A DNA stretch of 54,361 nt from a virus (Duplodnaviria > Caudoviricetes), in the IMG/VR virus record IMGVR_UViG_3300022074_000053, positions 1 to 54,361 of that record; one strand, given 5' to 3'. This document shows positions 5,935 through 29,432 of this stretch, in pieces. A program made the position numbers and the translations under genes. Below the pieces are notes generated by a model. It worked only from the letters and a program-made list of their open reading frames with translations. It had not been told where the DNA came from and made no database searches. Numbering within the stretch: position 1 is the first letter of the stretch; each line of letters opens with the position of its first letter.

Positions 5935-6030
5935 ATGAGTGCGGGGAACACCGGGTAGAATATTCCTCAGACACCCTCCGTCTGAGGTATTAGAGACGTG
6001 ATTTAGACTCCCTATAGGTCTCGGTTTGAG
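5935..6030 (-). ncRNA. structured psbA 5' leader, PhotoRC-II-like RNA motif
   Basis: Hairpin CCTCAGAC-GGAGGGT-GTCTGAGG (5965-5987) plus GAGAC/GTCTC stem; position matches PhotoRC-II; family named from memory. Confidence 0.7.
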
Positions 6031-6068
6031 GAGAGTTGCGTTACATTTCGTAACCTTCAACACTATGT

Positions 6069-18914: not shown

Positions 18915-19827
18915 AATCTTTATACCATTCGTAAGTTGATTTGATACCTTCTTTCAAATTAATCTGAGGTTCCCACCCAAGTGCTTTAATTTTATCGACA
19001 TTCAATACTTTACGTGGAGTTCCATTTGGTTTACTAGTATCCCAATTAATGATTCCATTATATTCAACAGTATCTGAAACTAATTCAGACAAATCTTTAA
19101 TTGATACATCTTCACCAGTTCCAACATTAATTGGTTCAGGACTATTATAATCCTTCATACAAGTGAAACAAGCATCAGCAAGATCATCAACATGAAGAAA
19201 CTCTCTTTTAGCGGATCCATTTCCCCATAGTGTAACAGGTTTACCTCTTTTACCGTCATCAAACTTACGAATCATTGCTGGGAGAACATGAGATGTCTCA
19301 AGATCAAAGTTATCTTTGGGACCATATAGATTAGTAGGCATCAAAGAAATACAGTTAAATCCATACTGCTTTCTATATGCTTGACACATTTTAATGCCAG
19401 CAATCTTAGCGATAGCATAAGCATCATTGGTTGGTTCAAGAGGACCTGTCATTAAATATTCTTCTTTAATTGGTTGTTCACAGATCTTTGGATAGATACA
19501 TGAAGATCCCAAAAATAATAGTTTCTTAACTCCAAACTTACGAGCAGCGTTAATTATATTTGATTGAATCATCAAATTGTCGTAAATGAAGTGTGCCGGA
19601 TAATCCTTATTAGCACCAATTCCACCTACTTTAGCAGCAGCGAGATAAACATATTGTGGTTGATTTACTTGAAAAAATCGACCAACATCATCTTGTCTAC
19701 GAAGATCCCAATAAGAAGAAGGACTAGAAAAAATGTTCGTATATCCTTTTCTGTGAAGCATACGAACAATTGCTGATCCCACAAGACCTGTGTTCCCAGC
19801 AACATAAACTCGACTCTCACTGTCCAT
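18901..19827 (-). CDS. fcl: GDP-L-fucose synthase
   Basis: [55 protein letters not shown]. Confidence 0.96.
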
Positions 19828-20818
19828 AAAGCACCATGTCCTCAATTAATTCTGTAAAAGAAGTTTCGGGTTCCCAACCCAGTTTTTCCTTTGCCTTAGT
19901 GGCATCACCCAGAAGAGATTGGACTTCAGCGGGTCGGAAATATTTATGGTCTACTTTGATAACAGGTCTCTTAGTGTTCCAATCATATCCAACTTCGTTC
20001 AGACCCTCACCCATCCATTCAATCTTCATGCCAAAGTATGGTGCTGCAGCATCAACAAAATCACGAACAGAATATTGTTCTCCCGTAGCAATTACATAAT
20101 CATCAGGTTCATCTTGTTGAAGCATCAACCACATTGCTTTCACAAAGTCTTTTGCATGTCCCCAATCCCTTCGTGCATCAAGGTTTCCGAGAGATAATAC
20201 GTTTTGTTCCCCAGTTGAAATACGGGACAATCCTCTGGTAATTTTGCGGGTAACAAACGTTTCTCCTCTTCGGGGACTTTCATGATTGAAAAGTATTCCA
20301 GAACTTGCATGTAATCCATAAGACTCTCTGTAATTTTTCACAATCCAATATCCATACAGTTTTGCTACACCATATGGAGAACGTGGATAAAATGGTGTTG
20401 TTTCACTTTGTGGAACTTCTTGAACAAGTCCATAAAGTTCACTGGTAGATGCTTGATAGATTCTTACACCTTTCTCCATTCCCAAAAGGCGAACTGCCTC
20501 AAGGATACGAAGAGTGCCAAGACCATCAACGTTACCAGTATATTCCGGCATCTCAAAAGAAACTTTTACATGACTCTGAGCACCAAGATTATAGATTTCA
20601 TCAGGTTCAATCTTTTTGATAACTCCAATAATATTGGTAGCATCAGTCAAATCACCATAATGAAGATGAATGTGATCATAAATGTGATCAATTCTATAAG
20701 TGTTGATAAGTGAACAGCGACGAACAATACCATGAACTTCATATCCTTTTTCAAGGAGAAGTTCTGCTAGGTATGATCCATCCTGTCCAGTAATTCCAGT
20801 AATTAGAGCAACTTTCAT
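19817..20818 (-). CDS. gmd: GDP-mannose 4,6-dehydratase
   Basis: [55 protein letters not shown]. Confidence 0.98.
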
Positions 20819-20879: not shown

Positions 20880-21075
20880 CTTTCATGCACGCCACTTGTT
20901 CTTTTACAGGAAACAAGAAACCTGGCGGGATAATCCCATCCGCACCACCTTATTTTAGGAATAAGGAAACCAAAGAGGGTCTAATGACTCCACCACCTTA
21001 TTTTAGGAATAAGGAAACCCGAGGGTCAATTGACCATCCCGACCAGGGCAGGTTTCAGGTCACTCCGCGACCGCG
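20880..21075 (-). ncRNA. structured RNA with three tandem hairpin units, manA-like motif
   Basis: Two identical 29-bp units and one degenerate unit, each a hairpin followed by TGGYG; upstream of gmd; family named from memory. Confidence 0.65.
20943..21019. repeat. perfect 29-bp direct repeat (20943-20971, 20991-21019)
   Basis: CACCACCTTATTTTAGGAATAAGGAAACC twice; degenerate copy at 20891-20922. Confidence 0.95.
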
Positions 21076-21330
21076 AGCAGTAACTACATCACCAGTTACA
21101 TAGCATGGAACACCATCAGGGTCTAACCAACAGGTGTAATCATGATCTTCCATGGCAGTCATTAACTGCATTTCATTATCACAGAGATACATGTCTCTGT
21201 AACGTCCGGTGTAAGAATCTACTTTTTGAATACGGCAATCTGGTTTTCCATTGATTTCCAGAATACCAACTTGTACATAACGATAAGGAAACCGTTCAAG
21301 AAGAACGGTTGGTTTTTTCATTACTTTCAT
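21055..21330 (-). CDS. conserved cyanophage hypothetical protein
   Basis: LERFPYRYV..NGKPDCRIQK..YLCDNEMQ..WLDPDGVP. Confidence 0.75.
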   Translation of the reverse strand: MKVMKKPTVLLERFPYRYVQVGILEINGKPDCRIQKVDSYTGRYRDMYLCDNEMQLMTAMEDHDYTCWLDPDGVPCYVTGDVVTARGRGVT

Positions 21331-21545
21331 TGACTAACCTCAACAGTTTCAAGATCGCTGTAGATATGCTCCATCAGCATTTCATAATCATCTAGAAGAT
21401 CTCCTGAAAATACCACTCCCACTTTTTCGTAGTAGCGGCGTACCTTTTTGAAAAGTTTCGGATTCTTTACATCAAGGAAAATTTCTCCAGCGGCAGCAGC
21501 ACGGAGAGTGCTGATGTCTTTTTTGAATTTTTCAGTCAGTGCCAT
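21327..21545 (-). CDS. conserved cyanophage hypothetical protein
   Basis: LDVKNPKLFKKVRRYY motif; own promoter upstream. Confidence 0.75.
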   Translation of the reverse strand: MALTEKFKKDISTLRAAAAGEIFLDVKNPKLFKKVRRYYEKVGVVFSGDLLDDYEMLMEHIYSDLETVEVSQ

Positions 21546-21567
21546 TGTTGTGTTTGGTTGCCCTTAT

Positions 21568-21596
21568 ATTATAAGGTTTTGAATCTATGTAGTCAA
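21568..21596 (-). promoter_or_regulatory. sigma70-like promoter (TTGACT-17-TATAAT)
   Basis: Boxes read directly; preceded by hairpin TGCCAGAT-CTTC-ATCTGGCA. Confidence 0.75.
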
Positions 21597-21620
21597 GGTG
21601 CCAGATGAAGATCTGGCAAG

Positions 21621-21694
21621 TCGGGGAGACAGGATTTGAACCTGCGACCTATGCTTCCCAAAAGCACCGCGCTACCAAACTGCGCTACACCCCG
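21621..21694 (-). tRNA. tRNA-Pro(TGG)
   Basis: Cloverleaf CGGGGTG...TAGCGCAG..GGTAGCGC, anticodon loop TT-TGG-GA, GGTTCAAATCC. Confidence 0.95.
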
Positions 21695-21696
21695 AA

Positions 21697-21778
21697 GTGG
21701 TAGTTCCTATCGCCGCTAACCCTGAACTACCAAGGGGGTCACCGCAGTTGAGAAGGGTGGGTGGTGTTCTTCTCAACT
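21697..21778 (-). ncRNA. candidate structured RNA (hairpin plus H-type pseudoknot) co-transcribed with tRNA-Pro
   Basis: 9-bp hairpin 21747-21777; interleaved stems TGGTAGTTC/GAACTACCA and CTGC..TGACCC/GGGTTAGCGG; promoter TTGCCA-17-TATACT at 21784-21812. Confidence 0.55.
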
Positions 21779-21792
21779 TTCAAAGTATAGCA

Positions 21793-21954
21793 CTATTTGT
21801 GGTGTTTGGCAAATGGTTCCCAATGTTCCCATCCATATTTGTGAACTGCCCACATTCCAAGAATTGGAACAAATACCAGTGACCATCCCATAATTGCCAT
21901 AGTCCACCAGGTATTCAATACCCAAGCGGCAAAGTGTGCTGCTGAATGAATCAT
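21793..21954 (-). CDS. 53-aa hypothetical membrane protein
   Basis: Manual translation MIHSAAHFAAWVLNTWWTMAIMGWSLVFVPILGMWAVHKYGWEHWEPFAKHHK. Confidence 0.65.
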   Translation of the reverse strand: MIHSAAHFAAWVLNTWWTMAIMGWSLVFVPILGMWAVHKYGWEHWEPFAKHHK

Positions 21955-22034
21955 CCTCTATACCTCCCCGGCCATGTAAGTTGCATTCCTACCAGCAATA
22001 ATGTAATAAACACAAATATGAATAATAAAGTCAT
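21951..22034 (-). CDS. 27-aa membrane peptide
   Basis: MTLLFIFVFITLLLVGMQLTWPGRYRG; ATGA overlaps on both sides. Confidence 0.5.
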   Translation of the reverse strand: MTLLFIFVFITLLLVGMQLTWPGRYRG

Positions 22035-23386
22035 GCTGGATAATCCCAATTTGTAATCTCATCTACTTTAGATGTAGGACCCCATGTTCCTGCTTCATAT
22101 ATGTGAGGAATTGTATTGATGAGACATTCTTCACCAGTACAAAGAAGATCATCTACAATTCTCCAGGATTCCATCACTTCATCAGAGTGGACAAAGTGTG
22201 ATTGATTTCCACTGATCGCATCATATAAAAGTTTCTCATACCCATCAATCGCTCTTTCCTGGGGATAGGCGTGTGTGAGGGTAGCGAGTTCCAAATTGTC
22301 AGAAAGACCAGGAGATTTGATATCCATACGGATGTCCAGATGAGGATTAGGTTGAAGACGCATAACGATGCGATCATTTGTTTCCCCTTCATAAAGTTTT
22401 AGCGGTGGTGATTTAAATTTAATAACAACTTCCACACATCCATAGGGCATACATTTGCCTGTCATTACGCGAAAAGGAACTCCTTCCCAACGCCAGTTAT
22501 CGACATATAAAGAACCAGCGACGAAGGTAGGAGTACTGCTGAGAGGATCAACGCCCTCTTCAGTGCGGTAAGTATTGTATTGTCCAAAGATTGTATCCTC
22601 CCCTAAACGAGTGGCAGCAAGAACTTTAACTTTTTCTCTGCGAATTTCTTTCGCATCCATTCTGCATGGCGCTTCCATAGCAATGAGAGAAAGCACCTGA
22701 AGAACATGATTTTGTAGCATGTCCCTAACAGCACCAGCAGTGTCATAGTATTGAGATCGTCCATCACAACTGATTGTTTCAGTTGCGAAGATTTGAACTT
22801 CTTCTATGTAATTACGGTTCCATAAAGGTTCCAACAAAATATTGCTAAACCTAGTAGCAAGTATGTTATTAACAGTATCTTTGCCAAGATAATGGTCAAT
22901 GCGATAAACCTGTTTTTCGCGTAAATGTCGCTCAACCACAGACTGTAAATGATGAGCAGATTGATAATCGTACCCAAAGGGTTTCTCAATAACCAAACGC
23001 GATTTTTCGGGGTCATCAAGTCTTCCTGCTTCTTTGAGATTGATGATAGCATTCTCATATCGTTCTGGAGGTACAGATAAAAAGTAAGTGTTATCATCCA
23101 GATACCCCGGCAAATGATTCAGAGTTTCTGGTAAAGATAAATCTGTGGAAACATAATCTAAATGCCATAGAAAATCTTCAGGATAATCATCAGGATTAGC
23201 AAGAGATTCTTTCCATTGATCTGGAGTTCTTTCACGTCTAGCAGATCCAGTAATAACAAAATTCTCTGGAAGTAAGTCTTTCTTCCAGAGATTATAAAGT
23301 GCAGGAATTAGTTTTTTCTTACACAGATCTCCAGTCGCACCAAAGATAACAATCCCAGAACTAGTGGGCCGTTCCATTTCCATCAT
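22031..23386 (-). CDS. zwf: glucose-6-phosphate 1-dehydrogenase
   Basis: IFGATGDL, EKPFG, RIDHYLGK, RDMLQNH, RWEGVPF; start moved to MMEMERP. Confidence 0.98.
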   Translation of the reverse strand: MMEMERPTSSGIVIFGATGDLCKKKLIPALYNLWKKDLLPENFVITGSARRERTPDQWKESLANPDDYPEDFLWHLDYVSTDLSLPETLNHLPGYLDDNTYFLSVPPERYENAIINLKEAGRLDDPEKSRLVIEKPFGYDYQSAHHLQSVVERHLREKQVYRIDHYLGKDTVNNILATRFSNILLEPLWNRNYIEEVQIFATETISCDGRSQYYDTAGAVRDMLQNHVLQVLSLIAMEAPCRMDAKEIRREKVKVLAATRLGEDTIFGQYNTYRTEEGVDPLSSTPTFVAGSLYVDNWRWEGVPFRVMTGKCMPYGCVEVVIKFKSPPLKLYEGETNDRIVMRLQPNPHLDIRMDIKSPGLSDNLELATLTHAYPQERAIDGYEKLLYDAISGNQSHFVHSDEVMESWRIVDDLLCTGEECLINTIPHIYEAGTWGPTSKVDEITNWDYPA

Positions 23387-28539: not shown

Positions 28540-28616
28540 AAGTGGTGGGAGAAGATCTCCCAGGCACATCCTTCACACGGATGAGACCATAATATAACAA
28601 TCACTTTAGATTGTCA

Positions 28617-28843: not shown

Positions 28844-28857
28844 AATAAGAAGACAAA

Positions 28858-28931
<74 letters not shown>

Positions 28932-28982
28932 ATGAGAACCCACATATTATACTTTATGTGGGATATGGTGTCAATGAGTAAA

Positions 28983-29432
28983 TTAATTCATTCCATTACC
29001 AGACTTCCAACCACCTGGACCTTCATGGAAGTTTTCGGAACCACCAATTGCTTCTTTAGTTTCATCAACCGTATTCCAATTTGAGGTTGCCATCTCATAC
29101 ATTAATTGATGAATGCTACAAGGTTCTCCATTATATTCCCTACCATCTTCCTGCGCTTGCTGTTGCTTGATGATAGTTTCTTGCTCCATATAATCCAGTT
29201 GTTTTTCTGAACGCTCAGGAGCAGGTCCAAACCAAGGATCATCTTCCAAATACACGGGAGCTGGAGCTCCAGTATAATAGTTTATAGCATCATTTTTAAA
29301 TGCCTCGCCTTCATTATAATCTTCTTTCAGATCTTTACAGTTAATTACATTCTCATCGATAGAGCACTGAATATCATTCTCTATTGATTTGGCGATTGCT
29401 TTTTCTATTAGCGACTTAAATTTTTTAATCAT
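28983..29432 (-). CDS. hypothetical protein
   Basis: 149-aa ORF, DDPWFGPAP motif. Confidence 0.65.
   Translation of the reverse strand: MIKKFKSLIEKAIAKSIENDIQCSIDENVINCKDLKEDYNEGEAFKNDAINYYTGAPAPVYLEDDPWFGPAPERSEKQLDYMEQETIIKQQQAQEDGREYNGEPCSIHQLMYEMATSNWNTVDETKEAIGGSENFHEGPGGWKSGNGMN

Follow-up and report, generated by a model that had tools for sequence, protein, structure and literature searches.

A conserved promoter, hairpin and pseudoknot unit that usually abuts tRNA genes in cyanophages

The stretch of DNA that we analysed (IMG/VR record IMGVR_UViG_3300022074_000053, 54,361 nucleotides, hereafter the window) is a piece of a T4-like cyanophage genome, 54 kb in length, and it carries zwf and six transfer RNA (tRNA) genes. 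Directly upstream of its tRNA-Pro gene, on the minus strand, lies the element that we describe here. It comprises, in order, a promoter (21812-21784), a hairpin that we term P0 (21777-21747), the dinucleotide UG, a 46-nucleotide (nt) pseudoknot (21744-21699), and a spacer, (A)CUU, that leads into the tRNA (Table 1). The element follows an open reading frame (ORF) for a membrane-type protein of 53 amino acids (aa) (21954-21793, minus strand; PHROG 1184, function unknown), whose end overlaps the element's promoter. The 72-aa ORF downstream of tRNA-Pro belongs to PHROG 552, also of unknown function. We show that the element is a conserved, gene-like unit that combines a consensus early-type promoter, a 5' hairpin, and a covarying H-type pseudoknot and that usually abuts a tRNA. 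We also show that it is restricted to phages and is mostly present in a single copy. As far as sequence comparison can tell, it is a well-supported orphan RNA family of ecologically dominant phages, and it matches no family in Rfam 15.

The pseudoknot is supported by covariation in both of its helices, S1 and P2, which interleave. We aligned 124 distinct sequences (alignment A3, 2049 cells in the paired columns) and compared them to 500 shuffles. Pairing bases fill 99.6% of the cells, and 11 of the 17 pairs have changed on both sides. The covariation score was 0.490, as compared to a mean of 0.193 for the shuffles (0/500 were as high) and at most 0.132 for slid registers; an earlier alignment of 105 sequences gave a similar outcome. 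Each helix contributes: both sides have changed in 5 of the 8 pairs of S1 (99.7% of cells paired) and in 6 of the 9 pairs of P2 (99.4% of cells paired). For example, at the S1 pair 21743-21715 we find G-C 113 times and U-A 11 times, and at the P2 pair that is fourth from the loop we find G-C 112 times, G.U 6 times, A-U 4 times, and U-A twice. The helices are also predicted independently of each other: RNAalifold, which draws no knots, picks exactly S1, and the minimum-energy fold of the single sequence picks P0 and P2. The strands are thus arranged 1-2-1'-2' with covariation in each helix, which is the arrangement of an H-type pseudoknot. Across the family, S1 has 8 pairs around one purine-purine mismatch (21742/21716, which is G.G or A.G), P2 has 8-10 pairs, and the junction between them is one base. 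A protein-coding explanation for the conservation is ruled out because the loop L1 has insertions of 1, 2, or 4 nt, which are not multiples of three and break every frame.

An earlier, sequence-only reading of this locus had already described much of this structure. Its 5' hairpin of 9 base pairs (bp) is our P0, and its second 9-bp hairpin, UGGUAGUUC/GAACUACCA, is our P2; the single-sequence fold predicts both. The structure also ends 3 nt before tRNA-Pro, as it had claimed (the last paired base is A21698, and the spacer is CUU), and in the relatives that we collected from other cyanophages both of its knot-forming stems covary. For the second stem of the knot, it had joined UGACCC/GGGUUA to a distal CUGC/GCGG. 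The six UGACCC/GGGUUA pairs stand, as they covary strongly and are chosen by RNAalifold. The distal register is off by two: it contains a G-C pair that is broken in 11 of the 124 sequences without compensation, and if the register is shifted by two (C21744-G21714 and G21743-C21715), the same 11 sequences switch from G-C to U-A.

The promoter that the same reading had proposed (TTGCCA-17-TATACT) is present in the window at 10/12 matches in a consensus scan, with a 17-nt spacer and with TG just before the -10 hexamer. To describe it across the family, we took 187 distinct upstream contexts and anchored their alignment at the first G of P0. Positions -35 to -30 are T (.91), T (.88), G (.83), A (.75), C (.83), and A (.60), and positions -12 to -7 are T (.92), A (.93), T (.89), A (.78), A (.63), and T (.97). 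In other words, the matrix gives TTGACA and TATAAT, canonically spaced, and +1 falls on the first G of P0; TAnnnT is in place in 182 of the 187 contexts. The distance from promoter to structure is fixed, as in a promoter-driven small-RNA gene. In the window, the predicted transcription start is G21777, which is the first base of P0 and the seventh base after the -10 hexamer. The promoter belongs to the unit, and P0 forms the start of the predicted RNA. Some lineages have the promoter inside the end of the upstream coding region.

P0 is conserved as a structure. Its last base in the window, C21747, is the C of the 'CUGC' motif, and a hairpin of at least 5 bp that ends at that C is found in 159 of 179 distinct upstream contexts versus 105 of 895 shuffles. 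The stems differ in a compensatory way: they are GUUGA/UCAAC (96 contexts), GUGGU/ACCAC (34 contexts), or others such as GCCAG/CUGGC. The loop sequence is not conserved. Most members have GAAA or GAGA tetraloops or unrelated loops, so the C/A-rich loop that had been likened to an anti-Shine-Dalgarno sequence is specific to this window.

Within the knot, the variable helices surround a fixed core, which consists of the UU of L1, the three junction-side pairs of P2 (U-A, U-A, and C-G), the junction A, the first two G-C pairs of S1, and the pattern G-C-N-A-N-A-G of the loop L3. For the 3' half, the evidence that is free of pattern bias comes only from blastn hits and from a scan that was anchored on the 5' half. 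The 5'-anchored scan gave 216 matches in the loci examined. The canonical 3' half is present in 176 of these, about 14 are unrelated chance matches, and about 24-26 are true members that depart from the canonical form. The departures are confined to the third base of L3 (G to U or A), the fifth base of L3 (Y to A), one inserted A, and the fourth P2 pair, where G-C is replaced by A-U, U-A, or G.U. We infer from the invariant core that the knot is stabilised by base triples, which L1 would form in the deep groove of P2 and the adenines of L3 in the shallow groove of S1. The core could equally be a binding pocket. As the knot and the hairpin are small (the knot is about 55 nt) and the core is invariant, the element should lend itself well to structure determination, pull-downs, and phage genetics.

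Table 1. The element and its immediate surroundings in the window (positions count from the first base of the window)
Feature	Position	Strand	Basis or remark
-35 hexamer TTGCCA	21807..21812	-	in the last codons of the upstream 53-aa ORF
-10 hexamer TATACT, TG one base upstream (extended -10)	21784..21789	-	
P0, 5'-terminal hairpin, 9 bp, 13-nt loop	21747..21777	-	single-sequence fold
Stem S1, 5' strand: C21744, G21743, mismatch G21742, UGACCC 21741-21736	21736..21744	-	partner 21722-21714
Loop L1 (CCUU), UU invariant, 0-4 extra bases among members	21732..21735	-	alignments
Stem P2 (S2), 5' strand GGUAGUUC	21724..21731	-	partner 21699-21706
Ninth P2 pair, which may form	U21732-A21698	-	
Junction A21723; S1 3' strand GGGUUA 21722-21717, mismatch G21716, C21715, G21714; within the P2 loop	21714..21723	-	
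Loop L3 (GCGAUAG), pattern G-C-N-A-N-A-G nearly invariant	21707..21713	-	5'-anchored scan
Stem P2 (S2), 3' strand GAACUACC	21699..21706	-	covariation
Spacer (A)CUU between knot and tRNA +1; presumed 3' end of the small RNA after RNase P	21695..21698	-	
tRNA-Pro, anticodon UGG	21620..21694	-	ARAGORN; Rfam tRNA 64.5 bits at 21621-21694
Hairpin GCCAGAU-CUUC-AUCUGGC just after tRNA-Pro, without U-run	21600..21617	-	sequence
Next promoter TTGACT-17-TATAAT, 11/12 consensus	21596-21568	-	for the 72-aa ORF 21327-21545

The element is widespread in marine cyanophages. Three pattern scans of IMG/VR gave at least 119, at least 120, and at least 119 stretches, so the family size and the frequencies that we report are lower bounds and hold among the matches listed. 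In total, we found at least about 265 IMG/VR contigs and about 65 records of cultured phages or single viruses that carry it. A 56-nt query with the knot matched 57 phage records, at one place each, and all of these are Synechococcus phages. A query with a diverged member added the Prochlorococcus phages P-SSM2 and P-SSM5 and two single-virus genomes that are classed in Kyanoviridae. The Synechococcus phages include S-SM2, ACG-2014f, and S-SKS1, and as S-SKS1 is a Llyrvirus and lies outside Kyanoviridae, the element crosses unrelated phage lineages. In the phage records that we opened, no annotated feature covers the element. The covariance model gives one strong hit per genome in 5 complete genomes and one in the window contig.

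We also scanned 185,579 species genomes (one per species) for the exact core, which gave 21 stretches. Just 2 of these are full-length matches to the covariance model, and both are in metagenome-assembled genome (MAG) bins (one on an 832-bp contig and one at a contig end). The other 19 match the pattern only, at 16-29 bits. None of the 21 exact-core stretches is a cyanobacterial copy, and a diverged host homologue would escape an exact-core scan. Two contigs (L032 and L082) carry two divergent copies each. One copy heads an Arg-Gly-Asn-Val tRNA cluster, and the second lies 1.2-2 kb downstream, either before tRNA-Pro or its former site or alone. This suggests that the two-copy contigs reflect two old paralogous lineages.

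No Rfam 15 family accounts for the element, and the sequence-only reading had likewise been unable to match it to a named family. We searched with the 4227 covariance models of Rfam 15. At the gathering thresholds, the whole window has 8 matches, none of them on the element. With E-values up to 10, the region 21400-22100 gave only tRNA, YrlA, and two weak hits on the plus strand. Five diverse members had no match on the element at E-values up to 1. Also, 20 further loci gave 103 matches at the gathering thresholds, which are of the tRNA type except for one abiF, and again none is on the element. The YrlA hit (RF02553; 21.8 bits, E = 0.049, threshold of 69) covers 21638-21748 and borrows the genuine tRNA-Pro. 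Neither ARAGORN nor the Rfam tRNA model calls a tRNA or a tRNA-like structure over 21695-21777 or over the homologous stretches. A tRNA mimic had been suggested because the element ends in ...ACCA in the window. That end is not conserved, so a CCA-type tRNA mimic is unsupported: the end of P2 changes along with the strand that it pairs with, and many members end in ...CUACUUU, ...CUACU, ...CCGUCA, or ...CCAGGA instead of an NCCA-like sequence.

The full-text literature, as far as it can be searched, gave no description of the element, and the 10,006 candidate RNAs in the supplements of one study (PMC10690425) may include the motif. The only non-coding RNAs that are named for cyanophages in a 2025 review and a 2023 genome paper are CfrI, PhotoRC-II, wcaG, manA, glnA, and abiF (PMC9964418, PMC12197685). 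T4-like cyanophages rank with the ocean's most abundant viruses and have few known non-coding RNAs, to which the element adds a small structured RNA with very strong support. It has its own consensus early promoter, it is found in phages of both Synechococcus and Prochlorococcus and in at least two unrelated lineages, and it is kept beside decayed tRNAs.

The element usually sits right against a tRNA gene. Among 181 distinct contexts, 134 have a tRNA that begins 0-5 nt downstream, and this tRNA is Arg-UCU in 103 of them, Pro-UGG in 30, and Lys in 1. The gap between the expected end of P2 and the tRNA is 2 nt in 58 contexts and 3 nt in 52. The remaining 47 of the 181 contexts lack an intact tRNA next to the element (contig ends cut off a few of these). 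A truncated tRNA lies beside an intact element in three or four contexts; in L023, L069, and L062, it is a tRNA-Arg that is truncated or degenerate. In L211, an interruption, which may be an intron, follows the anticodon stem of the tRNA-Arg downstream of the element. In the tRNA-less copies of the S-SKS1 type, a U-run follows the element, or else the promoter of the next gene comes immediately. In those of the P-SSM2 type, it lies between hsp20 and the next ORF, and other tRNA-less copies precede small membrane proteins, a Phd/YefM-like gene, or other genes. In two tRNA-less contigs (L022 and L058), the hairpin and the promoter that follow tRNA-Pro in the window lie directly behind the element.

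Conversely, the tRNAs do not need the element. In the window, tRNA-Arg(UCU) (28857-28932) has its own promoter and no element. It stands behind an hli-like ORF, and the intervening sequence (28933-28990, minus strand) carries the promoter TTGACA-17-TATAAT and a plain 14-nt leader. In phages of the RB11-B type, the pseudoknot element fills the equivalent gap between hli and tRNA-Arg. As the element is kept after the loss of the tRNA, and as tRNA-Arg occurs without the element, the two are separable. The tRNA-Gly of the window also has its own promoter (TTGACA-17-TATTAT) and a leader of about 50 nt with two hairpins (28540-28616, minus strand), which may be a second structured tRNA leader. This leader ends in ...ACCACUU right before the tRNA, and the seven-base tail matches that of the tRNA-Pro leader.

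We clustered the 4998 ORFs of 242 dereplicated loci all against all and found no recurrent RNA-binding neighbour and no consistent class of downstream gene. The latter argues against a cis regulator with a single target. Two neighbours do recur. The gene for a SegE-like GIY-YIG homing endonuclease (PF19835, 181 bits; e.g., 10545-10982 of L015) is found upstream in 101 of the 242 loci, at a median distance of about 700 nt; it recalls segB, which lies inside the tRNA cluster of T4, and it may explain the horizontal spread of the module. A small Phd/YefM-like ORF (PF02604, 23.5 bits, which is below the cut-off of 29.8; e.g., 126-296 of L040) is present in 60 of the 242 loci. It recurs downstream of the Pro-linked copy and is annotated as an antitoxin in two records (SSM2_185 of S-SM2 and gp194 of Bellamy).

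We propose, with about even confidence, that the element encodes a self-contained early small RNA that acts in trans by binding a conserved partner via its invariant helical junction. The host polymerase would start early in infection at the first base of P0, from a near-consensus promoter of the sigma-70 type. RNase P would then cut at the +1 position of the tRNA and free an RNA of about 70-85 nt. In the window, the element's own promoter and the position of the tRNA fit a product of about 83 nt (21777-21695), which agrees with the discrete RNA of about 80 nt that the sequence-only reading had expected from RNase P cleavage. As both of its ends would lie within helices, the freed RNA would probably be stable and resistant to nucleases. 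Its conserved partner would more likely be a host protein than a small molecule, and the tRNA would merely be a co-expressed gene and a signal for 3'-end processing. We favor action in trans because the element persists without a tRNA, because a fresh promoter often insulates the next gene, and because there is no consistent target in cis. Also, the constraint on the sequence far exceeds what a generic roadblock would need.

RNA libraries contain related sequences: in 4 marine runs, assembled contigs span 21698-21751. Many are short pieces with diverging flanks on either side and thus come from relatives that carry the same core. At least two of the contigs have a relative's promoter as well as P0 upstream, and they could derive from carry-over of DNA or from read-through. 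Peaks of depth over the element reflect words that are shared between phages, and the assemblies give no starts, ends, or strand, so they weigh neither for nor against transcription.

Several observations weigh against a small RNA that acts in trans. First, no terminator is found behind several of the tRNA-less copies (P-SSM2, L165, and L152), which would then be 5' leaders of messenger RNAs (mRNAs), and this fits a cis-acting element equally well. Second, the near-exclusive pairing with Arg(UCU) and Pro(UGG) tRNAs and the tight spacing of 2-3 nt could mean that the element has a role in cis in the maturation of these tRNAs. Third, the nested fold of the single sequence is unexceptional (z = -1.33; 18 of 200 shuffles fold equally well, and the knot is outside of this model), so the support for the structure rests on the comparison with relatives. 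Fourth, two of the three IMG/VR scans fixed the sequence from the top of P2 through L3, which means that the apparent invariance of this part is partly built in. Fifth, L3 has 7 nt with which to cross 9 layers of S1, which is sterically tight. Finally, the sequence names no protein or ligand as the partner.

The alternative that survives best, which we consider possible if rather unlikely, is that the element is a cis-acting 5' leader, in which the hairpin and a mechanically stable knot protect or assist the RNA behind them. It could block decay by RNase E or RNase J, which depends on the 5' end; it could aid the folding of the first tRNA and its processing by RNase P; or it could help the polymerase to read through, as do the put RNAs of phage HK022, which are two simple stem-loops that lie right downstream of early promoters and act in cis on the polymerase. 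A leader would account for why the element is always at the predicted +1 of a strong promoter and always upstream of, and co-directional with, a tRNA or another gene, and it would suit both the spacing of 0-5 nt to the tRNA and the terminator-less copies that look like mRNA leaders. Structured leaders might even be a general habit of this phage, given the promoter and leader of its tRNA-Gly. However, RNase P would sever the element from the tRNA, so that the mature product would be left unprotected, and tRNA-Arg and other tRNAs of the same phages do without the element. Also, the next gene has a separate promoter behind the copies of the S-SKS1 type and in the window, and the junction and L3 are more invariant than a generic roadblock would require.

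A more speculative pair of ideas, which we think quite unlikely, is that the RNA is a decoy for counter-defence or host takeover or, equally, that it is a ligand-gated knot that controls the maturation by RNase P of the AGA- and CCA-decoding tRNAs. As a decoy, an abundant early RNA would capture a conserved RNA-binding enzyme of picocyanobacteria, such as a toxin that cleaves tRNA or other RNA, a defence nuclease, or a core RNase. It would do so from the same early operon as the replacement tRNAs and often near a Phd/YefM-like antitoxin gene. Ligand-gated maturation of tRNAs, if true, would be a new regulatory principle.

It is very unlikely that the element is an aptamer that senses a ligand, like a riboswitch, to gate the processing or expression of the adjacent tRNA or gene. 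What invites this idea is a small H-type knot at the 5' end of a transcript with variable helices and an invariant junction and loops, and pseudoknot riboswitch classes do show invariant junction or loop nucleotides together with variable helices. A riboswitch would combine its aptamer with an expression platform and a coherent set of genes. Here, the distance of 0-5 nt to the tRNA in 134 of 181 contexts leaves no expression platform, the genes downstream of the tRNA-less copies are heterogeneous, and no Rfam riboswitch matches, even at E-values up to 10. Moreover, base triples alone could explain why the UU of L1 lies by the U-A pairs of P2 and why the As of L3 lie by the G-C pairs of S1.

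We put little stock in conservation at the level of DNA, in which the element would be the target or co-conversion tract of a homing endonuclease, or a signal for recombination or replication, and the RNA fold would be secondary. This might be expected from the SegE-like gene upstream in those 101 loci and from the horizontal spread across Kyanoviridae and the Llyrvirus S-SKS1. However, the compensatory changes (in 11 of 17 pairs, and also in P0) imply selection on a folded single strand rather than on a duplex site, and the built-in promoter with its +1 at P0 implies that the strand is transcribed.

A new small self-cleaving ribozyme beside tRNAs is slightly less probable again. The compact knot with its invariant core, in phages and beside tRNAs, brings to mind that some HDV-like ribozymes of gut phages sit beside tRNAs, but no ribozyme in Rfam 15 matches, RNase P already supplies the only cut that is needed, and we know of no self-cleaving fold that a hairpin plus a simple H-type knot would fit. 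Last, a degenerate tRNA or a mimic of tRNA or Y RNA is largely refuted: the position and spacing of a neighbouring tRNA in an array, the loose resemblance (by eye) of P2 and its loop to a D arm, and the weak YrlA hit are outweighed by the silence of ARAGORN and the Rfam tRNA model, by the hit's falling far short of its threshold and leaning on the real tRNA-Pro, by the variable ACCA end, and by the finding that the bases that look like a D loop make up the 3' strand of S1, which covaries.

The closest precedent in kind for a small RNA that is released beside a tRNA is rnaC and rnaD (species 1 and 2) of T4. In the annotated T4 record, tRNA-Arg is at 71173-71247, rnaD at 71053-71171, and rnaC at 70908-71046. 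Like the element, these are stable non-tRNA RNAs of unknown function that lie against tRNA-Arg, with gaps of 1-6 nt, and they are presumably freed by tRNA-processing enzymes, as we propose for the element. In contrast to the element, they lie downstream of tRNA-Arg, they are 139 and 119 nt long, and no promoter of their own is annotated directly in front of them. Homology was considered and rejected: a search with nhmmer of all loci, including the T4 locus (L248), gave no T4 hit, and the best score of the covariance model in the T4 locus is only 11.5 bits (E = 0.88) and falls in a tRNA gene rather than in rnaC or rnaD.

In the phages ACG-2014f and RB11-B, which represent two lineages, a second structured RNA occurs in the same transcription unit as the element. 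A manA RNA (RF01745; 90.1 bits at 565-775 of L003 and 82.5 bits at 530-740 of L005, versus a threshold of 55.2) fills the gap between tRNA-Arg and the next tRNA, with 1 nt to spare on each side. It was absent from 20 of 20 other Arg-linked loci that we sampled. Like the element, manA is a structured cyanophage RNA of unknown function; it differs in having another, larger fold (192 model positions) and in being already catalogued. It was originally described in 5' untranslated regions (PMC2864571). Between two tRNAs, manA would be excised by tRNA processing, and its position makes it plausible that non-tRNA RNAs are released in this way. Together, the element and the wedged manA suggest that, in the tRNA operons of cyanophages, tRNA processing also serves to free functional RNAs of other kinds, as rnaC and rnaD of T4 had hinted decades ago. 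An abiF RNA (RF03085; 44.8 bits versus a threshold of 37) also adjoins a tRNA, at 2554-2590 of L139, within the large tRNA array of an uncultured cyanophage-like contig.

The proposed formation of the 3' end has a parallel in the eukaryotic MALAT1 RNA, where a downstream tRNA-like unit (mascRNA) sets the site of the RNase P cut and the new 3' end is held in a compact tertiary structure. The logic is the same as that proposed for the element, where the cleavage is predicted; MALAT1 differs in being a long RNA whose triple helix involves an A-rich tract, and there is no relation in sequence. H-type pseudoknots of the triplex type include the core of telomerase RNA, the SAM-II and preQ1-II aptamers, and frameshifting knots. 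The element resembles these in its interleaved helices, its one-base junction, a U-rich L1 that faces U-A pairs of stem 2, and an A-containing L3 that faces G-C pairs of stem 1. It differs in that it matches none of them in Rfam, has no expression platform, and has no slippery site, because transcription starts at P0; its own base triples are putative. GOLLD and ROOL, which are hundreds of nt long, are structured orphan RNAs that often stand next to tRNA genes in phages. The element has no sequence or fold in common with GOLLD, ROOL, or the put RNAs, and it has no Rfam hit to them.

Elsewhere in the window, we found two RNAs that are ordinary for cyanomyoviruses: wcaG (20881-20974, minus strand, 96.8 bits), which is upstream of an ORF for a GDP-mannose dehydratase-like protein (19817-20818), and PhotoRC-II (5952-6048, minus strand, 72.1 bits).

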